A DNA stretch of 32,000 nt from Erysipelotrichaceae bacterium (GTDB lineage: Bacteria > Bacillota_I > Bacilli_A > Erysipelotrichales > Erysipelotrichaceae), in contig OY781039.1 of NCBI GenBank assembly GCA_963676105.1, positions 1,140,001-1,172,000 on the forward strand. The letters are read 5' to 3'. Below, piece by piece: positions 22,782-32,000 of this stretch. A program made the position numbers and the translations under genes. The notes beneath the pieces were generated by a model. That model was not told the origin of the DNA and did not search any database. It saw only the letters and a program-made list of their open reading frames with translations. Within the stretch, counting starts at the first letter, position 1. The number at the start of each line of letters is the position of its first letter.

Positions 22782-23726
22782 TTAGAATTTTCTCCAGCAT
22801 TTTAATTCTAAAAATTCAAGTATCCCTTTATTGTCAGTCCCCTCATAATACTCAACGAGTAGTTTTTTAAATTCACTAACACTTTGTTCTGGGACAACCA
22901 GAATGCCTTCACCTTTTGAGATTAAGAAGTGATTTGCAAAAATAATTGCACTTCTTTCGTTCCCATCTTTAAATACTTGCGTTTTCATAATAAACAAACA
23001 CAATTGGATTGCCTCTTTAATGTTAGATAATTCTTCGTTTAAAATGGCGTTAATCGATTCAATAACAATTGTCTCTATTGGAATTGGTGGAATATATGTA
23101 CAACCTCCAATGGTGACGGGTATTGACCTAATTCTTCCGCCATCAACGATTAACCCTTCATTTACTAACTTACCGATATGACACAAGATTTGATAATCAC
23201 TTTCAAAATTTATGAAATCATTATCCAGAATAAATTCCCAAGCGTGTTTTAGATTTAATATTTTCTGTATATCCTTTGGTGTAACTCCATTCACTATACC
23301 ATTTTCAATAATTTCTTCAGTTTGTGGAAAAGAAGTTGCGATACCTTCAAGAACTGCTTGATCATAGATAAGTGATTTAATATTAATTCTTGCGAAGTCC
23401 AAATTAAGAACAACTCTATTATTCAGTGTCTGTTCTTTATAATCGAGCTTTGCTAGATCCTTTTCAATGTGCCGAATTTCACGTCTTAACTCTTTAGCTT
23501 CCCTTGCGTTTCTTAACAATAATTCATACAAATTATCTGAATAAACATCTACATACTTCGATGTTACTTTGCTGCCTACTCTTTTTCGTACATACAAATA
23601 CCTTTGCCCACTAATCTCTTTTACTTCAGGGGTACCATCATACGCCATTAAGCTAAGTCGTGCATTTAAATCAGATTTTAAGTGTAGTAAATTTTGAATT
23701 TCTTGTATTTTATTTACCATATACAC
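22782..23726 (-). CDS. Fic/DOC-family-like protein with a degenerate active-site motif
   Basis: 314 aa. The region QVFKDGNERSAI aligns with the Fic motif HxFx(D/E)GNGRxxR but lacks the His, the second Gly and the last Arg. The likely true start is ATG at 23720 (the track start GTG lies within the AGAGGTG RBS). Confidence 0.6.
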   Translation of the reverse strand: MYMVNKIQEIQNLLHLKSDLNARLSLMAYDGTPEVKEISGQRYLYVRKRVGSKVTSKYVDVYSDNLYELLLRNAREAKELRREIRHIEKDLAKLDYKEQTLNNRVVLNLDFARINIKSLIYDQAVLEGIATSFPQTEEIIENGIVNGVTPKDIQKILNLKHAWEFILDNDFINFESDYQILCHIGKLVNEGLIVDGGRIRSIPVTIGGCTYIPPIPIETIVIESINAILNEELSNIKEAIQLCLFIMKTQVFKDGNERSAIIFANHFLISKGEGILVVPEQSVSEFKKLLVEYYEGTDNKGILEFLELKCWRKF

Positions 23727-23732
23727 CTCTTT

Positions 23733-23772
23733 TAGGGAACATTTATGAATATTTTATACATTTTGTTCCCTA
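23733..23772. promoter_or_regulatory. 9-bp inverted repeat bracketing the Fic-like gene promoter
   Basis: TAGGGAACA-22 nt-TGTTCCCTA. The spacer contains TATAAAAT on the minus strand. Confidence 0.35.
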
Positions 23773-23844
23773 AATGAATATTCGATAATTACAGCATTTA
23801 TTTTATGACACCGAAGTGACACCAATAAGAGCTCTATAAACAAA

Positions 23845-23868
23845 AAAGTGCCTATTTAAGGTACTTTA
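23845..23868 (-). terminator. Junction terminator A
   Basis: The minus strand reads AAAGTACCT-loop-AGGCACTTT (one mismatch) followed by TTTGTTTAT. It lies immediately past tRNA-end mimic A. Confidence 0.5.
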
Positions 23869-23877
23869 GAGATATAA

Positions 23878-24100
23878 GGTGTACGTGACAGGAATCGTAT
23901 TACATTACCATAACTTCCCAAACACTACCATTTCATGCCGTTTCGTCCCAAATCTTTCCGAAGCTTCCCATATTAAAACTAGGGGATGATTACGGGTTTG
24001 AAAATTATGATAGATTAACTCTTACCCAAGAGTAATTTAGTTTTGCTTGTTCTATATAAAGTAACAATCTATCTATATGGTAACAATACCCACTCATGTT
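23878..24100 (-). repeat. Cassette-junction repeat A (decayed tRNA-3'-end mimic + ~200 bp arm)
   Basis: aGGTGtaCGTGACAGGAATCG has 3 changes from the consensus TGGTGCGCGTGACAGGAATCG. It is followed by an arm that aligns with copies B and C through ...CCCACTCATGTT. Confidence 0.8.
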
Positions 24101-24144
24101 ATTAACAAATACTTTGATTTTTTCATTTCAGTACATAAATAGTA

Positions 24145-24663
24145 TCATTGCAATATGTAATTAATAATGATGAGATTCTTATACACTAAAATCAAATAGA
24201 CATGATCACTAGGCATATTATCGACTGATTGATCCGCATTAATCGTAAAATACCTAAAACAATTACACCTTAAGTCGAATGGACGTAGATCTATTTTTGC
24301 TGTCCCATTAATTGTGGTTTCTTCTATAAGATTAAGAATTGGAGCACGACCGTCTATCACTTCTTGCTCTTCAATGATTTCATCATTCTCGAGATCATTA
24401 ATGAATTTATAAAAATCATTTTCTTCATTGATTTTTAGAACCATGAAACTTTCATAAATCTGTCCTTCATAAGACACCACAGTATATTGATCTTCTGTTA
24501 TATAAGGAAGAAGCTCAGCATATCTAAAGTAATCAGTAGGTTGATCTATTTTTGGATCAAGTGGATCATCTAGTATAACTGATACAATTAAAATTAGAAT
24601 TATTGTGAGAAATAGCGCAGTCAAGAACATAAAGATATATTCAAAATATTTAGATATTTTCAT
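24145..24663 (-). CDS. Hypothetical membrane-anchored protein
   Basis: 172 aa. A single N-terminal hydrophobic helix (FMFLTALFLTIILILIVSVIL), then an acidic soluble domain. No recognisable family. Confidence 0.5.
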   Translation of the reverse strand: MKISKYFEYIFMFLTALFLTIILILIVSVILDDPLDPKIDQPTDYFRYAELLPYITEDQYTVVSYEGQIYESFMVLKINEENDFYKFINDLENDEIIEEQEVIDGRAPILNLIEETTINGTAKIDLRPFDLRCNCFRYFTINADQSVDNMPSDHVYLILVYKNLIIINYILQ

Positions 24664-24742
24664 CGCATAGCATTTTCCTAATGTAAATCAACTAATCAGT
24701 AATAGTTGCCTTACATGAAACTAAGCGATCAAAGTACAGATC

Positions 24743-25930
24743 TTATAATTTAAAATTCAATAAAAAGTCTTCTATATTAATATGTTTAATTCCTTTATAT
24801 GAAAAATCCACGGTATCCATTGATAGAACTAATTTAGGATATGAGTCATTGATAGAATTTAAAACACTGAACTCTCTTTCTCTAGTCGTTTCTGAACCTA
24901 GTAAATAAGATACTTGTATATATAACTTCTCATCATTTTTAGTAGCAATAAAATCAATTTCCTGTTGATTTAACTTTCCGATATTTATAGTGTATCCTCG
25001 TCTTTTAAGTTCGATATAGACAATATTTTCTAAGATTAATTCAATGGCTGCTTCATTATTCCCAACAACGGCTTCTCTAAAACCATGGTCAGCAATAAAG
25101 TATTTTTCTTCTGTTTTTAATAATGCTTTCCCATTGATGTCATATCTTGAAGCTTTATATAATATAAAAGCCTTTTCTAGGATATCAATATAATGAAGTA
25201 TTGTATCAACACTAATTTTTATGTTTTGTGATTTTAGATACTTTGAAATAGACAAAGCTGAAAAAGTTTTAGATGTATTCGCACATAAATAAATGATAAG
25301 TTTTTCTAGTGTCGCTGAATTTCTTATGTCATATCTTTGTATAACATCTTGAAGAACGGCTGATCGAAAACTATCTCTTAGTACAGTCATTGACAAGTCA
25401 TAGTTTAAATCAAAAACAGTTATCGATGGAAGTCCACCAAAAGTTACATAATCTATGAATGTTGCTTTTTTATGATAATCTTTAAACTCTTTATAAGAAA
25501 AAGGGTGAACTAAAATCTCTACATATCTTCCAGCTAGATACGTAGACAAATCAGATGACATTAAGTCCGAATTTGATCCCGTGATATAAATATCAAACTT
25601 ATTCATCGCATGGAAAGCATTGACGGCTTTTTCCCAATTTTTTATTCTTCCTACTTCATCAAGAAACAAGTATAATGGTCCACTATTCTTTTTCTCCCAT
25701 TCTAATACCCTGTTTGTTAAATCTTCGTAGTCATTAATGTTAAAGTTCTCGGGAAGTTCAAAGTTCAGCTTAAGCACATTTATTTTACTTGTAGTATTTT
25801 TTAGTAAATCTTCAATATACATATCTAAAAGAACTGATTTACCGGAACGTCTTAATCCAGTTATAACCTTTACAAAAGGTTTATCTTTATAATCTTTTAA
25901 CTTCTGAATATAGTCTAAACGTTCAACCAT
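24743..25930 (-). CDS. AAA-type ATPase of the AAA_14/DUF4143 kind
   Basis: 395 aa. Walker A GLRRSGKS and Walker B LYLFLDEV, with a C-terminal QEIDFIATKNDEKLYIQV segment resembling the nuclease-like fold tail of this family. Confidence 0.75.
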   Translation of the reverse strand: MVERLDYIQKLKDYKDKPFVKVITGLRRSGKSVLLDMYIEDLLKNTTSKINVLKLNFELPENFNINDYEDLTNRVLEWEKKNSGPLYLFLDEVGRIKNWEKAVNAFHAMNKFDIYITGSNSDLMSSDLSTYLAGRYVEILVHPFSYKEFKDYHKKATFIDYVTFGGLPSITVFDLNYDLSMTVLRDSFRSAVLQDVIQRYDIRNSATLEKLIIYLCANTSKTFSALSISKYLKSQNIKISVDTILHYIDILEKAFILYKASRYDINGKALLKTEEKYFIADHGFREAVVGNNEAAIELILENIVYIELKRRGYTINIGKLNQQEIDFIATKNDEKLYIQVSYLLGSETTREREFSVLNSINDSYPKLVLSMDTVDFSYKGIKHINIEDFLLNFKL

Positions 25931-26089
25931 TACAATTACCTCTATTTCGATTATATTCTAAATACTTTAATATTTCAAATATTATTTCGATTATAGTCTA
26001 AATTAATATTTATCAATAAATCAAAGTAATTAATTTATTCCATAATCTTTCCTAAAGATGCATTTTTATGTAATAAAACCAAAACAAAA

Positions 26090-26111
26090 GAACATCTCTT
26101 TCAAGATGTTC
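26090..26111 (-). terminator. Junction terminator B
   Basis: The minus strand reads GAACATCT-TGAAAG-AGATGTTC followed by TTTTGTTTTGGTTTT. Confidence 0.7.
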
Positions 26112-26123
26112 CAATTTGGTACA

Positions 26124-26305
26124 TGATGCGCGTGACAGGAATCGTATTACATTCCCAAATCTTCCCACAGCTTCCCATATTAAAACTAGGGGTAAACTAG
26201 GGTTTTGAAAATTATGATAGATTGATTCTTATTCAAGAGTAATATAGTTTTGTTTGTTTTATTTGAGGCAACAAATCAATGCATACTGTAATAATACTCA
26301 CTCAA
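26124..26305 (-). repeat. Cassette-junction repeat B (tRNA-3'-end mimic with CCA changed to TCA + arm with ~41-bp internal deletion)
   Basis: TGaTGCGCGTGACAGGAATCG plus an arm. Relative to A and C it lacks the segment between two CTTCCCA motifs. Confidence 0.8.
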
Positions 26306-26327
26306 GATTTTACACATACTAAAATTT

Positions 26328-26639
26328 TTAAAATAATTTATCAGTGTCCCTACGATTATATAAAACCCTGATAATGACTACTTTCTTCATTTCTTTATTT
26401 AGATAGTAAAAAATTGAATAATTATCAATGATCATCTGCCTTAGTTCACCAGAACGAGAAGTCTCTTTTCTATACAACTGAAATCTTTCTGGCATCTCGT
26501 TTAACAAATTAATCTTATTTTCAATTCGTTTGAGCTGCTCTATTGCGATAACTGGTGATTGCAGTTCAAAAGCAATATATTCAAAAATACTTCGTAGATC
26601 ACTATCTGCTTGATATGAGACCTCAATATCGAAAGTCAT
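26328..26639 (-). CDS. Type II toxin, RelE/ParE family
   Basis: 103 aa with a sequence typical of the ParE/RelE plasmid-stabilisation family. A 4-nt ATGA overlap with the upstream antitoxin gene. Confidence 0.8.
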   Translation of the reverse strand: MTFDIEVSYQADSDLRSIFEYIAFELQSPVIAIEQLKRIENKINLLNEMPERFQLYRKETSRSGELRQMIIDNYSIFYYLNKEMKKVVIIRVLYNRRDTDKLF

Positions 26640-26953
26640 ACATTATAATCTTTGAAGATATCGGAAAAAACTTGTTTAACAGGTTTTACTCTACCTTCAT
26701 CCATATCTTTTAAACCTTTTGCCAATTCTGTGTCTATTTGTTCAATGGTCATACTACTCATATCTATTAATTTTGGTGTTGGAATTTTTACATCAAAAGG
26801 TAAACCTTTGTTAAGGATTATTTGTTTATAAAACATATTAATAGCATTGGATGCAGGTATACCAAGAATCGAGAGAATATTCTCTGCTTGTTCTTTGACC
26901 TCTGGCTCAATTCTTGCATATAGATTTGCTGTTTTTATTGCCATATCGGACAC
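26636..26953 (-). CDS. Type II antitoxin, RelB/DinJ family
   Basis: 105 aa. The N-terminal ribbon-helix-helix-like ...NLYARIEPEVKEQAENILSILGIPASNAINMFYKQI... is typical of DinJ/RelB. Confidence 0.8.
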   Translation of the reverse strand: MSDMAIKTANLYARIEPEVKEQAENILSILGIPASNAINMFYKQIILNKGLPFDVKIPTPKLIDMSSMTIEQIDTELAKGLKDMDEGRVKPVKQVFSDIFKDYNV

Positions 26954-27030
26954 TCCTTTATTCTTTTATAGATATATTATCACTCTTTGTGCATACAAAA
27001 GCAATACATATATAGTTTACTTCATGAATC

Positions 27031-27044
27031 TGCGTATATACGCA
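27031..27044. promoter_or_regulatory. Perfect 14-bp palindrome upstream of the antitoxin gene (candidate operator)
   Basis: TGCGTATATACGCA lies about 50 nt upstream (minus sense) of an extended -10 (TGaTAATAT) preceding the antitoxin RBS AAAGGAG. Confidence 0.4.
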
Positions 27045-27074
27045 TTTTTGTGCAGTTACTAATAAACAAACAAA

Positions 27075-27098
27075 AGAGGTTCTCAATTGAGAACCTCT
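27075..27098 (-). terminator. Junction terminator C
   Basis: AGAGGTTCTC-AATT-GAGAACCTCT, a perfect 10-bp stem. The minus strand continues TTTTGTTTGTTTATT. Confidence 0.8.
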
Positions 27099-27110
27099 AA
27101 TTTGTATACA

Positions 27111-27334
27111 TGGTGCGCGTGACAGGAATCGCATTACATTCCCAAAACTTCCCAAACTCTACCATTTCATGCTGTTTCGTCCCAAATCTTTCCGAAGCTT
27201 CCCATATTAAAACTAGGGGTGGACTAGGGGTATGAAAATTATGATAGATTAACTCTTACCGAAGAGTAATTTAGTTTTGTTTGTTCTATATAAAGTAACA
27301 AGTCTATGCATACGGTAATAATACCCACTCATGT
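27111..27334 (-). repeat. Cassette-junction repeat C (intact tRNA-3'-end mimic + full arm)
   Basis: The reverse complement of 27111-27131 is CGATTCCTGTCACGCGCACCA. The arm contains 4 TTCCCA-type motifs, 2 ACTAGGGG motifs 11 bp apart, and a plus-strand hairpin with a T-tract. Confidence 0.85.
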
Positions 27335-27436
27335 TTTTCCACCGTAGTACAGGACATTACATTTATAGATATAACAACAATACCAATACATGGTTTTCAT
27401 GAAAATACAGTTTGTGTACATTAATTTTGAAACTGA

Positions 27437-27772
27437 TTAATTATATACCAAAATTAATAAAGCAAGATAGATAAGAATAATCTCAAAAACGATCAATAAA
27501 GAAAAAACTTTGTAATAATTCGTTGTACTAACTTTACTGATACTATCGATTATAACAATACAAATCAAAGACAAAAACACTATTAGATATAAATGCCAAT
27601 TATTTCGCCATACACAATATATTAATATTGCATTTAAAATAGAAAATATTTTAAAATTTTCTCTTCTATGCATATTTAAGCGATATTTAAACGATTGAAA
27701 CAATGGTAAAAACAAAATTATTACAAATATATCTACCCATACATTTAGATTTTCTAAATTATAATTTATCAA
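27437..27772 (-). CDS. Small multi-pass membrane protein (candidate immunity/partner protein)
   Basis: 111 aa with 3-4 hydrophobic segments. Lies 22 nt downstream of the secreted-protein gene. Confidence 0.5.
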   Translation of the reverse strand: MINYNLENLNVWVDIFVIILFLPLFQSFKYRLNMHRRENFKIFSILNAILIYCVWRNNWHLYLIVFLSLICIVIIDSISKVSTTNYYKVFSLLIVFEIILIYLALLILVYN

Positions 27773-27794
27773 TTTCGTAACTGCTCTTATCTAC

Positions 27795-28397
27795 TTACCA
27801 AAATCCAATTGCTGGATTTGGAAAAGCGCCATTCCAATCAATTCCTAAATAAAGACCTTGCCTTCTTACTGAAGATTGTATTACATAATAAACTATTGTA
27901 CCAGCGCCTACTAACCCAACAAGCATACCAAGTGCAGTCCCGACACCTGGGTAAACACTTCCCAAAGCTGTTAATGCCGCAGTTATAGCTGCTGGGCCAA
28001 TTTCTGCTGCAGCAAATAATGTCATCATCACTTCAGAATATGTTAAGTAAACCTTCCAATCCGAAATAAAAACTCTTGTATTTAACATTTTTCCACTACT
28101 ATAAATATTACTCAAAAAAATAATATTGTTTAATCTATTACCAAAATCTGTTGAAAATCCATATGTTTCAATAATATATTCAATGGATTCAGATAAAACT
28201 AGTTTACCTTCATGATCGAAAGTAAAATACTGATAAATTTCTGATAAATTATTTAAAAAAATTTGATCAGTTATACTTATCACGTCAGAGTAACTGCTCA
28301 CAACATATTCTTCCATCTCTACGTTAGTAGAAGCATTAACAGGACTAGCTAAACTAATAAAAAACAATAATACAAATAAACTTTTTAAAACTTTCAT
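27795..28397 (-). CDS. Secreted protein with a Gly/Ala-rich hydrophobic C-terminal region (module 1 cargo)
   Basis: The track ORF starts at TTG 28412, but ATG 28397 follows the AAAGGAAG RBS. Signal peptide MKVLKSLFVLLFFISLASPVNA|ST. The C-terminus ...AAEIGPAAITAALTALGSVYPGVGTALGMLVGLVGAGTIVYYV... forms two small-xxx-small-rich helices. Confidence 0.6.
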   Translation of the reverse strand: MKVLKSLFVLLFFISLASPVNASTNVEMEEYVVSSYSDVISITDQIFLNNLSEIYQYFTFDHEGKLVLSESIEYIIETYGFSTDFGNRLNNIIFLSNIYSSGKMLNTRVFISDWKVYLTYSEVMMTLFAAAEIGPAAITAALTALGSVYPGVGTALGMLVGLVGAGTIVYYVIQSSVRRQGLYLGIDWNGAFPNPAIGFW

Positions 28398-28442
28398 AAA
28401 TCTTCCTTTCAACTTAAAATCTTAAATTAAAAATATTTATAA

Positions 28443-28508
28443 CTAAACTCTTGGAATCTTATAATCAAATAACGATATAAGCCATAATAGTAAATCTAAA
28501 TCACCCAT
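28443..28508 (-). CDS. 21-codon ORF MGDLDLLLWLISLFDYKIPRV (candidate signalling pro-peptide), copy 1
   Basis: Below the ORF-track length cutoff. It has a strong SD AAGGGAGGA 8 nt upstream of the ATG. It is divergent from the XRE/TPR regulator and upstream of the secreted-protein gene. Copy 2 differs by two nucleotides in one codon (CTT vs TTA), both encoding Leu. Confidence 0.5.
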   Translation of the reverse strand: MGDLDLLLWLISLFDYKIPRV

Positions 28509-28545
28509 TTTTTTATTCCTCCCTTAGAATAATTATAATTTAAAT

Positions 28546-28555
28546 AATCATGATT
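28546..28555. promoter_or_regulatory. Palindromic box AATCATGATT in the divergent promoter region
   Basis: A perfect 10-bp palindrome 8 nt upstream (minus sense) of a TATAAT hexamer (28532-28537) that precedes the small ORF. Conserved in copy 2 (31280-31289). Confidence 0.35.
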
Positions 28556-28582
28556 CTTGTCTATTCTTTTTTTTGATTTTAA

Positions 28583-29854
28583 ATGTTAAAGAGTCTATTA
28601 TTAGATATCATGAGCGACAAATATAAAAACAATGGCTTTAACATTACAAAATTAATCATTGATCAAAGAAAACAGCTTAAATTATCTTTAAGAGAACTTT
28701 CTCAACTAACTAAATATAGTTATCAAACATTATCTAAATATGAAACAGGTGGTATTGAATTAAATAAGAACAATCGAGTAGTTCTATTTGAACACCTACA
28801 CATAAATGCAGATGACGTTGATTATTTATCCAATGACTTTAAACAAGATTTAGACTTACTGTTTGAATCGATTGTATATGACGAACAAGCTGAAATAAGT
28901 TCACTTTTCTCCAGAATTAAGAAAGCTGAAGAATATTTAGATTACACTAAATTTAGAGAAGAGTTTATTACGCTAAAAATCATTGTATCAATCATCAATA
29001 ATGAATCTATATCACAGGAAATGTTGAATGAATCACAATTCAATTCTTTTAAGCTATCTCTTCAACAATGGATCTATGATTATATCGCTATTTATTACCT
29101 CAAAAACAATGATCTTATTAGGGCTGTAAAATATATTGATAAAGCGATATCTCTTGGGGTTCATGAATCAAATGTTGGACTTGTCAATTACCATGCAGGA
29201 ATCATCTATTCTGTCTATGGACAACTTTTAAAAGCTAGACACTATTTAGAAACAGCAGAAACTCACTTCATAAAACAAAGAAACAATATAAGACTTATTA
29301 ATCTTCAAATACAACTAACAACGGTTGAATCAAAACTAGGACAAGTCAATAAAGCACGAGCATCTTATCTTAGACTGTTAAAAGACATCGAAAAAATTAA
29401 TGATCACTATTCATTAAATGTTGTGTATCATAATCTATCCTGGTTGGAATATCGCCAAGAAAACTTTCAAGTTTCATTAGACTATCTAGATAAACTTGAG
29501 AAATCTCAAACATTAGACGAAAATGATCTCATCACCAAAATGTTATGTTTAACAGAACTTGAACAATTTGATGAATCTGATTCTATTTACAAAAACAACA
29601 CAATCTTGGATACAATGTATAAATTATATAGTGAGATTATTCACTTAGAAAATATCCATAAGATTGATAAAAACTATGAAGCGAAATGTATGGAACTTTA
29701 TCACATTATTAAAGATAAAAGAGACTTTGAAAATATTGAAATCGTTATCTTAAAACTACTAGATTACTACGAAAAGAAGCGTTTATATAAGAAAGCCTAT
29801 GAACTCACCAAAGAACTTTATAGTTACATAGATTGGGTGTATCAACTCGATTAA
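28583..29854 (+). CDS. XRE-type HTH + TPR-like transcriptional regulator (RNPP/Rgg-like architecture), copy 1
   Basis: 423 aa. N-terminal HTH ...LSLRELSQLTKYSYQTLSKYETG... and a C-terminal ~330 aa with repeated helical TPR-like units (…YYLKNNDLIRAVKYIDKAISLG…GIIYSVYGQLLKARHYLETA…). The alternative start is ATG 28610. Confidence 0.7.
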   Translation: MLKSLLLDIMSDKYKNNGFNITKLIIDQRKQLKLSLRELSQLTKYSYQTLSKYETGGIELNKNNRVVLFEHLHINADDVDYLSNDFKQDLDLLFESIVYDEQAEISSLFSRIKKAEEYLDYTKFREEFITLKIIVSIINNESISQEMLNESQFNSFKLSLQQWIYDYIAIYYLKNNDLIRAVKYIDKAISLGVHESNVGLVNYHAGIIYSVYGQLLKARHYLETAETHFIKQRNNIRLINLQIQLTTVESKLGQVNKARASYLRLLKDIEKINDHYSLNVVYHNLSWLEYRQENFQVSLDYLDKLEKSQTLDENDLITKMLCLTELEQFDESDSIYKNNTILDTMYKLYSEIIHLENIHKIDKNYEAKCMELYHIIKDKRDFENIEIVILKLLDYYEKKRLYKKAYELTKELYSYIDWVYQLD

Positions 29855-29911
29855 TTTATGAACATCTTTTAAATTGATTTTTTCTTCTTTAAATTAAACA
29901 GTAGAAACAAA

Positions 29912-29935
29912 AGAGGTTCTCAATTGAGAACCTCT
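29912..29935 (-). terminator. Junction terminator D (also positioned to terminate the + strand regulator gene)
   Basis: Same AGAGGTTCTC-AATT-GAGAACCTCT hairpin as terminator C. The minus strand continues TTTTGTTTCTACTGTTT. Confidence 0.75.
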
Positions 29936-29947
29936 AATTTGTCTACA

Positions 29948-29967
29948 TGGTGCGCGTGACAGGATTC
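29948..29967 (-). repeat. tRNA-3'-end mimic D (intact core, different arm)
   Basis: TGGTGCGCGTGACAGGA is identical to copy C, and the ~60 bp to its left (including the terminator) is identical to C apart from one base. The sequence to its right is unrelated to the A-C arm. Confidence 0.75.
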
Positions 29968-30158
29968 AACATTTTACCTGTATATGATCAACATAGACTG
30001 CTATAAACGGCTTAATCCTATCTTTTATGCACCTTAAATATACTTGATTGACATAGAATTACATCAGAGTTCTGCTAGGAGGGGAAATTTAGGTGGAATC
30101 GTAATTTTATTCATATGTAATAATGCATTCTCATGTTTATCTCAAACAATCCATTATC

Positions 30159-30437
30159 TTACTTATTAATTGAATCCTTTAACTCATATAACGTAGCTTT
30201 TTTTGTCGGTCTTCTATTAAAAATAGCTAAGTGAATAAGTAAGATTACAAAAAGTATAAACTGATTTAACCAATTCATCGATAACCAAAACCACCCACCA
30301 TTAATAGCCACAACACTTGCGTTTGTATTATCAACATATTTGGCTAGATTATAGAATAGCGAAATTGAGTTAACAAAAGTTATTACACTTAAAATAAGCA
30401 ATATTAAATCAACATCTTTAAAAAATCTCTTTACCAT
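30159..30437 (-). CDS. Small membrane protein (candidate immunity/partner protein, module 2)
   Basis: 92 aa with 2-3 hydrophobic segments. Lies 10 nt downstream of the module-2 secreted-protein gene and is unrelated in sequence to the 111-aa module-1 protein. Confidence 0.5.
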   Translation of the reverse strand: MVKRFFKDVDLILLILSVITFVNSISLFYNLAKYVDNTNASVVAINGGWFWLSMNWLNQFILFVILLIHLAIFNRRPTKKATLYELKDSINK

Positions 30438-30447
30438 ATAATTCCTT

Positions 30448-31131
30448 TCAGTACCTTAAATGTGGATTACACAAACTAGATAATACTCCAAGATACCCCA
30501 CATTGGGCACCCATCTTTCTAAATCCCATACTTTCTCAACTACGAGTTGTTTGTGGCACATATATTGATCATATAAACTACCATTGTCAATTTGAATCCC
30601 AATATAAATCGTCTTCAATTCACTCCATGCTAAATTTGCTGCAAAATCAAGCACTCTAACTGATAGTTTAGGATCCAAACTATATGTCCAATAGTTATTT
30701 CTTAAATGATATATATGCGAATAGAAATATTCATTTACAGTGCTTAAAGAAAATGTACTAAATACGTAAACATTTGAACTCGACACACTTACATTCTGTG
30801 ATACTTCATCTAGTAAATCTTTCAAAGCTTCACTCTGTTCAAATTTATTATCTGACTGATTATAAATATATGATTCTAATCTTGAATTAACATCTTGTAT
30901 CCATTTCTCGTTTTGAATAACAAAATCGCTAAGATCCTCTAATTTTAAGTTCTCTATTAAAACCATATCAGTGATTAATTGATCTCTATATTGAAATGTT
31001 TCATTATTTTCTTCTAAGATTGACTCTTCTTCCTTTGTATATAAATCTGGCATCAAAACTGTGCTCGCATTCACAGGACTAGCTAAACTAATAAAAAACA
31101 ATAATACAAATAAACTTTTTAAAACTTTCAT
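30448..31131 (-). CDS. Secreted protein, module 2 cargo (same signal peptide, unrelated mature domain)
   Basis: ATG 31131 follows the same RBS as copy 1, and the signal peptide is identical through ...SPVNA|ST. The mature part is unrelated to copy 1. The C-terminal ...YMCHKQLVVEKVWDLERWVP... loosely recalls the DUF2599-type CH...WxLE motif (low confidence, from memory). Confidence 0.6.
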   Translation of the reverse strand: MKVLKSLFVLLFFISLASPVNASTVLMPDLYTKEEESILEENNETFQYRDQLITDMVLIENLKLEDLSDFVIQNEKWIQDVNSRLESYIYNQSDNKFEQSEALKDLLDEVSQNVSVSSSNVYVFSTFSLSTVNEYFYSHIYHLRNNYWTYSLDPKLSVRVLDFAANLAWSELKTIYIGIQIDNGSLYDQYMCHKQLVVEKVWDLERWVPNVGYLGVLSSLCNPHLRY

Positions 31132-31176
31132 AAATCTTCCTTTCAACTTAAAATCTTAAATTAAAAATATTTATAA

Positions 31177-31242
31177 CTAAACTCTTGGAATCTTATAATC
31201 AAATAACGATATTAACCATAATAGTAAATCTAAATCACCCAT
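31177..31242 (-). CDS. 21-codon ORF MGDLDLLLWLISLFDYKIPRV, copy 2
   Basis: Same peptide as 28443-28508, with a synonymous Leu codon difference and the same SD. Confidence 0.5.
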   Translation of the reverse strand: MGDLDLLLWLISLFDYKIPRV

Positions 31243-31316
31243 CTTTTTATTCCTCCCTTAGAATAATTATATTTTAAATAATCATGATTCTTGTCTATTC
31301 TTTTTTTTGATTTTAA

Positions 31317-32000
31317 ATGTTAAAGCGTATAATATTAGATAATATGAGCGACACTATATCAAATAATGGCTTTAACATTACAAAATTAATCATTGATCAA
31401 AGAAAACAGCTTAAATTATCTTTAAGAGAACTTTCTCAACTAACTAAATATAGTTATCAAACATTATCTAAATATGAAACAGGTGGTATTGAATTAAATA
31501 AGAACAATCGAGTAGTTCTATTTGAACACCTACACATAAATGCAGATGACGTTGATTATTTATCCAATGACTTTAAACAAGATTTAGACTTACTGTTTGA
31601 ATCGATTGTATATGACGAACAAGCTGAAATAAGTTCACTTTTCTCCAGAATTAAGAAAGCTGAAGAATATTTAGATTACACTAAATTTAGAGAAGAGTTT
31701 ATTACGCTAAAAATCATTGTATCAATCATCAATAATGAATCTATATCACAGGAAATGTTGAATGAATCACAATTCAATTCTTTTAAGCTATCTCTTCAAC
31801 AATGGATCTATGATTATATCGCTATTTATTACCTCAAAAACAATGATCTTATTAGGGCTGTAAAATATATTGATAAAGCGATATCTCTTGGGGTTCATGA
31901 ATCAAATGTTGGACTTGTCAATTACCATGCAGGAATCATCTATTCTGTCTATGGACAACTTTTAAAAGCTAGACACTATTTAGAAACAGCAGAAACTCAC
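31317..32000 (+). CDS. XRE-type HTH + TPR-like regulator, copy 2 (partial, runs off the right edge)
   Basis: Not in the ORF track. ATG 31317 gives MLKRIILDNMSDTISNNGFNITKLIIDQRKQLKLS... From 31365 to 32000 the DNA appears identical to 28631-29266. Confidence 0.7.
   Translation, partial: MLKRIILDNMSDTISNNGFNITKLIIDQRKQLKLSLRELSQLTKYSYQTLSKYETGGIELNKNNRVVLFEHLHINADDVDYLSNDFKQDLDLLFESIVYDEQAEISSLFSRIKKAEEYLDYTKFREEFITLKIIVSIINNESISQEMLNESQFNSFKLSLQQWIYDYIAIYYLKNNDLIRAVKYIDKAISLGVHESNVGLVNYHAGIIYSVYGQLLKARHYLETAETH

Follow-up and report, generated by a model that had tools for sequence, protein, structure and literature searches.

The 32,000-nucleotide stretch of Erysipelotrichaceae DNA analysed here (contig OY781039.1, positions 1,140,001 to 1,172,000; referred to below as the window) carries two tandem copies of an open reading frame (ORF) of 21 codons. 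Each copy is divergent from a gene for a regulator with helix–turn–helix (HTH) and tetratricopeptide-repeat (TPR) segments, the receptor, and each is followed by genes for a secreted protein, termed the cargo, and a small membrane protein. Judging from its pattern of change across homologous loci, the small ORF is very probably a translated gene under selection. Its product is probably the cognate (pro)peptide, lacking a signal sequence, of the divergent receptor and would head the operon that this receptor auto-induces, an assignment that draws on sequence comparison and on analogy with known peptide-signalling systems.

As an earlier sequence-only reading of the window had described, both 21-codon ORFs are present with a strong Shine–Dalgarno (SD) sequence and the only difference inside them is CTT against TTA, both of which specify Leu. 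The minus strand of copy 1 reads ATGGGTGATTTAGATTTACTATTATGGCTTATATCGTTATTTGATTATAAGATTCCAAGAGTTTAG, with a spacing of 9 nt between GGAGG and ATG, and the distance between the two copies is 2734 nt. Within the ORF the copies differ at positions 28479 and 28481 only, which changes codon 10 and retains Leu10. A position-by-position comparison of the repeat units from 28339 to 28591 gives four differences, namely these two together with 28509, the base immediately 5′ of the small-ORF ATG, and 28538, which adjoins the −10 box; outside the ORF the 185 bp interval (28398–28582) thus contains two differences and not the three that had been reported for it. Five further differences between the copies are located at 28592–28609, which is also intergenic because homologues place the regulator start at ATG 28610 and not at 28583. 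Between the two units the regulator genes show no nucleotide difference from about codon 8 to the end of the window (more than 630 nt), and the differences cluster at 28592–28630. By this comparison the two repeat units are recombination mosaics, and for this reason a single synonymous double change is weak evidence when taken alone.

About 12 homologous loci were recovered (L001–L009, L010 from a metagenome-assembled genome of an uncultured member of the Erysipelotrichaceae, L013 and L014). Close relatives of the divergent regulator gave six matches among 5.8 billion clusters, and the close family is rare, since scans of genomes and metagenomes with its alignment gave only two and three loci. 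In all homologous loci that extend far enough the small ORF is intact, with unchanged length and frame and zero indels. Its eight distinct nucleotide alleles encode the peptides MGD[LI][DN]LL[LI]WL[IM]SLFD[YN]KI[PL]R[VI]. In the aligned alleles 25% of the columns are variable in the ORF, with no indels, compared with 26% in the promoter region, with one 1-nt gap (two alleles), and 47% in the spacer between ORF and cargo, where indels are present. The minimum numbers of substitution steps at codon positions 1, 2 and 3 are 6, 1 and 11, respectively (chi-square p = 0.016). Relative to the allele consensus, 12 changes are synonymous (over 13 sites of this kind) and 8 are non-synonymous (over 47 sites), the latter being mainly L/I, V/I and D/N; the corresponding ratio of non-synonymous to synonymous rates (dN/dS) is ∼0.18–0.25 (binomial P of 2e-4 to 5e-3), as estimated from 20 codons without correction for phylogeny. 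The L008 allele differs from the consensus by four changes, each of which is synonymous and at the third position. Among the six frames that of the small ORF is the only open one, and the other five hold stops. The codon-position bias and the low dN/dS, together with the retention of frame, length and C-terminal motif (described below) down to a receptor identity of 32%, bear out the purifying selection that the sequence-only reading had suspected, and the comparison of homologous loci that it had proposed as a check revealed no stop, frameshift or loss of the SD sequence in the eight window-family alleles. Three window-family peptide variants that were looked up were absent from a collection of 15 billion proteins.

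The arrangement extends well beyond the close family. An exhaustive profile search places the receptor in a wider HTH–TPR family (∼400–420 residues) with 105 representatives at E <= 1e-3, of which 20 reach E <= 1e-10. At loci where the receptors are 32–40% identical, an SD-preceded ORF of 19–21 codons is found at the same place and divergent from the receptor gene, with different DNA (Table 1). The peptides of these subfamilies have a common C-terminus, [LI][FL][DE]x[VK][ILM]P[KR][VIF]-stop, beneath which the codons diverge (TTA TTT GAT versus TTG TTC GAT and CCA AGA versus CCT AAG). In the window peptide the conserved C-terminal 9-mer is LFDYKIPRV, with S/I before it. A regular expression for the nine-residue motif matched only small-ORF positions in 125 kb searched in six frames and gave no matches in 200 shuffles of the window, in a test that is partly circular as the motif was drawn from the same ORF sequences. 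At L015 (380–649) a paralogous receptor gene is stopped at 89 residues and, from its sequence, is likely to be a pseudogene; the locus keeps its divergent small ORF, MFELYYLIIDSFDMVLPKF, as well as the start of the cargo gene.

Table 1. Features of the two repeat units in the window and small ORFs at related loci (window positions; 'receptor identity' applies to the related loci).
Feature	Position	Strand	Receptor identity	Description
Small ORF, copy 1	28443..28508	minus		21 codons plus stop, MGDLDLLLWLISLFDYKIPRV; candidate signalling (pro)peptide
Small ORF, copy 2	31177..31242	minus		Peptide identical to copy 1; codon 10 is TTA instead of CTT
SD sequence AAGGGAGGA	copy 1 28517..28525; copy 2 31251-31259	minus		Kept in all alleles; AAGGCAGGA in one allele group
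TATAAT, −10-like hexamer	copy 1 28532..28537; copy 2 31266-31271	minus		Predicted promoter of small ORF and cargo, from sequence inspection
Box 2, TAGACAA	copy 1 28557..28563; copy 2 31291-31297	minus		Candidate receptor half-site
Box 1, TTGTCGC	copy 1 28614..28620; copy 2 31348-31354 (GTGTCGC)	minus		Candidate second half-site or autoregulatory operator
Receptor, copy 1	28610..29854	plus		414 residues, N-terminal HTH_3 and TPR superhelix; database protein P0150
Receptor, copy 2	31344..32000	plus		Database protein P0001; gene interrupted by the window end; nucleotides as in copy 1 from about codon 8
Cargo 1	27795..28397	minus		Secreted protein of 200 residues; signal peptide MKVLKSLFVLLFFISLASPVNA; unique mature part with Gly/Ala-rich hydrophobic C-terminus; no family match
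Small membrane protein	27437..27772	minus		111 residues, multi-pass, downstream of cargo 1; candidate immunity or partner protein
Cargo 2	30448..31131	minus		Secreted protein of 227 residues; signal peptide of cargo 1; unrelated mature part with DUF2599 (E = 7.8e-11)
Small membrane protein	30159..30437	minus		92 residues, downstream of cargo 2
Terminator-like hairpin, then TTTTGTTT	29912..29935	minus		Closes the copy-2 operon; a counterpart at ~27075-27100 closes the copy-1 operon
Small ORF, L001 / L015				MFELYYLIIDLFDMVLPKF / ..DSFDMVLPKF; paralogue, partial regulator
Small ORF, L020-L022			32%	MINQFYCLIQLFESVMPKF
Small ORF, L019			38%	MNGFYGFMVELLELVLP.. (cut by contig end)
Small ORF, L017			40%	MEI.. 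(cut by contig end)
Small ORF, L018			37%	..YLLEIIIIILESVLPKI; C-terminus ..LLEIIIIILESVLPKI

The conserved start of the receptor is ATG 28610 (MSDK..., 414 residues), whereas the database entries P0150 and P0001, which are both encoded on one 1,963,219-bp contig, comprise 423 residues from an upstream ATG (28583 in copy 1); the former was taken as the true start because homologues lack the upstream ATG. In Pfam the receptor matches HTH_3 and, below threshold, TPR_12/TPR_2. A single receptor sequence searched against the PDB and NCBIfam returned nothing useful and family profiles were needed. The family profile matched NprR (4gpk/5dbk) over profile positions 64–410 with E = 1e-22 when 24 sequences were included and 2.6e-34 with 54, and matched RapJ, RapF, RapI and phage Raps with values of 1e-15 to 1e-21; the match to PlcR was weaker. 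Rgg structures (4yv6 and 5w4m) align to the profile through the HTH only (positions 1–102), and no match of the receptor to an Rgg model was found in NCBIfam. The AlphaFold2 model of the receptor, calculated with a 54-sequence alignment, is an all-helical superhelix (pLDDT 92.4, pTM 0.87; an earlier run with a six-sequence alignment and a pLDDT of 62 was discarded), and its top Foldseek matches in the PDB are peptide-bound Raps (pLS20, phi3T, phi105 and RapJ), NprR and AimR, with target-normalised TM scores of 0.6–0.76. Since the full-length profile and fold matches are to NprR and Rap and the Rgg matches cover the HTH only, profile and model comparison identifies the receptor as an RRNPP receptor of the NprR/Rap clade and not of the Rgg/ComR type.

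In NprR, Tyr193, Asn194 and Asn275 are peptide contacts, and the contact of Asn275 with the peptide backbone is retained in every RNPP protein (PMC3763537). Asn275 of the window receptor, with a conservation of at least 90% across the 54 aligned sequences, aligns with the Ser274-Asn275 pair of NprR, and Tyr194-His195 aligns with NprR Tyr193-Asn194 in the profile alignment. The KRD motif of NprR, in which Arg126 contacts the peptide Asp and the C-terminal carboxylate (PMC3763537), is not conserved, and Arg126 aligns with a variable Asn-type profile position. No other candidate propeptide genes flank the receptor; the 57 nt from the receptor stop to the terminator hairpin contain no SD-preceded ORF, and 29855–30158 consists of junction repeat. 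A 24%-identical relative, P0028, has a 54-residue ORF directly upstream on the same strand (L023, 2805–2969; L024, 1–177) that encodes a lipoprotein/Sec-like signal peptide and a tail rich in Cys/His, in a more canonical propeptide layout. Pairing with peptide genes thus does occur in the wider family, and from these sequences the window clade seems to have changed over to a divergently encoded peptide without a signal sequence.

The predicted promoter (TAGACAA, 20 nt, TATAAT) points away from the receptor gene and is followed by the SD sequence, the small ORF and the cargo genes. The −10 position reads TATAAT, TACAAT or TATACT in the subfamilies, and box 2, located 20 nt upstream of the −10 hexamer, is invariant in all group-1 alleles and has related forms in the subfamilies. 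Boxes 1 and 2 constitute an inverted pair with a start-to-start spacing fixed at 58–59 nt, and both the pair and the spacing recur across receptor subfamilies although the DNA in between is unrelated. Box 1 overlaps receptor codons 2–4 in the window and is non-coding in L018, where it is situated upstream of the receptor ATG; as the receptor Asp3 codon is also always GAC, in a genome of 32% GC, box 1 seems to be a DNA element instead of a by-product of coding. The boxes are candidate inverted half-sites (TGTCGC/TGTCTA) for the receptor. A DNA-pattern scan for the box pair in a viral collection gave 36 loci, approximately the number estimated to arise by chance, and none of them has the peptide motif. 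The small ORF is separated from the cargo gene by an AT-rich spacer of 45 nt without a terminator. An Rfam scan of 23500–32000 yielded only a spurious miRNA match (E = 0.25) and the stability of the leader RNA in the window family is not significant (z = 0.40 versus shuffles), and a riboswitch or attenuator was dropped for this family on these two grounds. In L020 (2615–2845, minus strand) a leader of 231 nt with z = -3.15 versus shuffles is found between the small ORF and the cargo genes; it ends in a long hairpin and then GAUUUU, which makes a terminator or attenuator possible there and recalls the prgQ leader.

The signal peptide of the cargo is near-invariant, MK[VI]LKSLFVLLFFISLASPV.A, and the mature parts are unrelated. 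The 22-residue signal peptide is shared by the two window cargos (28332–28397 and 31066–31131) and by L001–L014 and is conserved in nucleotides too, with the identity between cargos ending abruptly at the cleavage site; this pattern suggests that cassettes may be swapped by recombination at the signal-peptide boundary. Cargos at other loci comprise 248, 162 and 247 residues, in addition to a weak Peptidase_C39_2 type, and the only Pfam assignments among the cargos are DUF2599 and this weak Peptidase_C39_2. Small membrane proteins follow each cargo, and from this gene content the pair could plausibly represent a secreted effector and its immunity protein.

RRNPP(A) systems have been defined by a receptor of 250–500 residues with TPRs, an adjacent gene for a peptide of 10–100 residues and a secretion signal in the propeptide (PMC10075063). 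The window receptor is of the TPR type with 414 residues, the 21-codon ORF is 101 nt from the receptor ATG and divergent from it, an adjacency seen in all loci and subfamilies, and receptor Asn275 corresponds to the groove Asn of RRNPP proteins (NprR Asn275). Inspection revealed no secretion signal of either the Sec or the basic-hydrophobic PptAB type. Apart from the secretion signal, the system is by these generic criteria one of RRNPP peptide signalling as read from its sequence, and falls outside SHP/XIP, LCP and NprR–NprX proper.

Among the known systems, NprR–NprX of the Bacillus cereus group and Rap–Phr have the same receptor architecture, with an N-terminal HTH and about nine TPRs (423 residues versus 414 here), and share the best profile and fold matches, the backbone-binding Asn and a short linear peptide as the presumed ligand. 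The identity to NprR is only ∼14%, however, and its KRD motif (Arg126) is not kept; NprX and Phr are Sec-dependent propeptides of ∼40 residues encoded downstream on the same strand, whereas the peptide here has 19–21 codons, is signal-less and divergent and heads the target operon. In gene layout RopB–SIP–speB comes nearest; in this system and in the LCPs (PMC10518010) an unannotated SD-preceded tiny ORF is likewise situated between a divergent RRNPP receptor and a secreted-protein gene, has no secretion or processing signals and is missed by gene callers. The LCPs have 8–10 residues that are almost purely aliphatic or aromatic, and their receptors are of the RopB clan, Rgg-like and of ∼280 residues (PMC10518010). 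The window system differs from them in peptide size (19–21 residues), in the charged, Pro-containing conserved C-terminus and in its NprR/Rap-like receptor. Rgg–SHP and ComR–XIP of streptococci resemble it in their short hydrophobic peptide without a Sec signal, the divergent HTH–TPR-like receptor (group I SHP), an active C-terminus expected to begin near an acidic residue and autoinduction (which is proposed here), but the receptor is not of the Rgg/ComR type (∼280–300 residues with an Rgg C-terminal domain) and the peptide lacks a Lys-rich N-terminus. PrgX–PrgQ (iCF10) and TraA–Iad of the enterococcal pheromone plasmids also place a peptide gene of ∼22 codons first in the regulated operon and divergent from an RRNPP receptor. 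There, an inhibitor peptide (PrgQ) comes from a signal-peptide-like basic/hydrophobic precursor, the repressor PrgX has 317 residues and the system controls conjugation and involves antisense RNA; none of these inhibitor, repressor, conjugation and antisense features is assigned to the window system. No described RRNPP or RRNPPA system in Erysipelotrichaceae was found in the literature searched, including the RRNPP_detector supplements.

In the mechanism that we propose, the conserved 7–9 residues at the C-terminus of the peptide (..LFDYKIPRV) or, with less likelihood, the whole peptide would be exported independently of Sec and then re-imported, as for SHP, PrgQ and SIP. In Phr, AimP, PapR, SHP and XIP the active part consists of the C-terminal residues with a free carboxylate, and an active part of the same kind (7–9 residues) is suggested here because the C-terminus is conserved and anchored at the stop. 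This active end would present an acidic residue at −7, Pro at −3, a basic residue at −2 and a free C-terminus. By homology, it would be predicted to bind in the TPR groove of the receptor through Asn275 and the Tyr194/His195 positions, and the peptide-bound receptor would act on the TGTCGC/TAGACA inverted boxes to activate the promoter of the small ORF and cargo. The result would be positive feedback and a density-dependent switching of the variable secreted effector together with its putative immunity protein, and the two tandem cassettes, with an identical peptide and near-identical receptors, would represent one 'pherotype' with two different cargos. The sequence-only reading had proposed a pheromone precursor of the SHP/XIP type beside an HTH/TPR regulator; a pheromone precursor remains the best explanation, but the SHP/XIP type is not supported, as the receptor is of the NprR/Rap clade and the peptide has no basic N-terminus.

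Several observations weigh against a pheromone. On inspection the peptide has no Sec signal, n-region or cleavage site, and its net charge is about −1; its N-terminus (MGDLD) lacks the usual Lys-rich start, as had been pointed out before, and the only basic residues are at −5 and −2 from the C-terminus. The subfamily peptides start with MFEL, MINQ and MNGF and thus also have acidic or neutral N-termini, whereas PptAB substrates (SHP, ComS and PrgQ) carry a basic N-terminus. To our knowledge, the propeptide of all known NprR/Rap systems is Sec-dependent, and its gene is downstream of the receptor gene and co-oriented with it. Pheromone 'codes' usually diverge, and the C-terminal motif is unusually conserved for receptors that are 32–40% identical and could instead reflect a constraint related to processing, export or the ribosome. 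In L018 (1483–1560, minus strand) the SD-proximal ATG gives only MTIC-stop, one base out of the frame of ..YLLEIIIIILESVLPKI, which may point to a frameshift in the peptide gene or its pseudogenisation, to initiation at TTG or to a fault in the assembly. The short sequence and the missing phylogenetic correction behind the dN/dS value belong on the same side.

Of the other explanations, a different micro-protein role is unlikely, whether as a never-exported intracellular modulator of the receptor, for self-sensing or as an anti-regulator, or as a partner of the effector/membrane pair (chaperone-like, membrane-associated or leaderless-bacteriocin-like). The coding conservation is clear, and an amphipathic, hydrophobic peptide without export signals, whose ORF shares a transcript with the genes for a secreted and a membrane protein, neither with an assigned function, would suit such a role. 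The hydrophobic stretch of 9–10 residues is nevertheless too short for a transmembrane helix and is broken by D/E/Q in the subfamilies, and the net charge is unlike that of the cationic leaderless bacteriocins. Furthermore, the peptide is constant while the cargos are swapped for unrelated proteins, from which it follows that the peptide goes with the receptor and not with the cargo. A transmembrane or type I toxin peptide was rejected, with the hydrophobic run being too short and interrupted by charges in the subfamilies.

We consider a cis-acting leader peptide to be slightly less probable again. In this case translation of the small ORF, perhaps with a pause of the ribosome at ..P-[KR]-X-stop, would govern how the cargo genes are transcribed or translated, and the receptor would sense some other ligand such as a fragment of the cargo signal peptide, for which the enterococcal pheromones, which derive from lipoproteins, offer an analogy. 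The small ORF is always at the 5′ end of the cargo operon and has no secretion signal, its conserved part is a C-terminus ending in Pro-basic-hydrophobic-stop that recalls Pro-stop arrest peptides such as TnaC, and the signal peptide of the cargo is strikingly conserved while the mature domains swap. The structured leader of the L020 subfamily (231 nt, z = -3.15), with its terminator-like hairpin between ORF and cargo, would also fit. In the window family, however, conservation is lowest in the spacer, where indels occur and 47% of the columns vary, z is 0.40 and no conserved attenuator is apparent; the spacer length varies from 45 to ∼220 nt between subfamilies, and there is neither a run of regulatory codons nor an Rfam match. 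A leader peptide would in addition leave unexplained the constant divergent TPR peptide receptor with its intact peptide-binding Asn. Least probable by a wide margin is the absence of any gene, with the conservation being that of DNA operators or a 5′-UTR element of the divergent promoter and the open frame being incidental: the whole intergenic region is well kept in close alleles (the columns that vary make up 26% of the promoter part and 25% of the ORF), conserved DNA boxes do occur nearby and a chance open frame of 21 codons is not improbable (∼0.15–0.2 estimated for 32% GC), but this would not account for the third-position periodicity (codon position 2 takes 1/18 steps), the indels in the flanks and none in the ORF, the SD sequence at the right distance in every subfamily and the amino-acid motif kept through different codons across subfamilies, and neither an Rfam match nor a stable structure was found.

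The surroundings of the two units contain a repeated junction element of ∼270 nt (26085–26330 and 27068–27345, with partial copies at 29905–29967 and 23913–24110), within which both operon-end hairpins are situated. It is composed, in order, of a bidirectional GC-rich terminator hairpin, TACATGGTGCGCGTGACAGGAATCG, CCCAAA-type and ACTAGGGG repeats and GAAAATTATGATAGATT...AAGAGTAAT. In reverse complement its TACATGG... segment looks like the 3′ end of a tRNA (∼22 nt, with T-arm, acceptor and CCA); ARAGORN detected no tRNAs in the window. Copies of the junction element flank a RelB/ParE pair and cassette A, in the manner of tandem islets between att-like repeats, and no integrase was seen. The RelB/ParE-like toxin–antitoxin pair (26328–26953) adjoins the cassettes and the same neighbours are present in L001, L002 and L007. 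Further to the left are a Fic-domain protein and an AAA_14/DUF4143 ATPase (22782–23726; 24743–25930), and together with the toxin–antitoxin pair they give an island-like context.

Within the searched literature the window system is undescribed, and as a concept it extends known biology rather than being categorically new. It is possible, although we would stop short of calling it probable, that it represents a new class of RRNPP pheromone, characterized by a Sec-independent precursor of 19–21 residues with the C-terminal end [LI][FL][DE]x[VK][ILM]P[KR][VIF]-COOH, an NprR/Rap-clade receptor and a divergent gene heading the target operon. On sequence grounds it may also be the first case of peptide quorum sensing in Erysipelotrichaceae and a portable head (receptor, peptide, promoter and signal peptide) for effector/membrane cassettes that are swapped between att-like repeats. 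The putative signal has been overlooked because gene callers skip ORFs of such a size. If the peptide is the signal of the receptor, NprR/Rap-type receptors would not be confined to Sec-dependent downstream propeptides, and peptide quorum sensing would extend to the Erysipelotrichaceae, which are gut commensals. The C-terminal 7–9-mers would then provide a defined synthetic ligand with which secreted-effector cassettes of gut bacteria that otherwise stay silent could be induced, and the fixed 'receptor–peptide–signal peptide' head with its variable cargo would provide a handle for finding and characterizing polymorphic secreted effectors.

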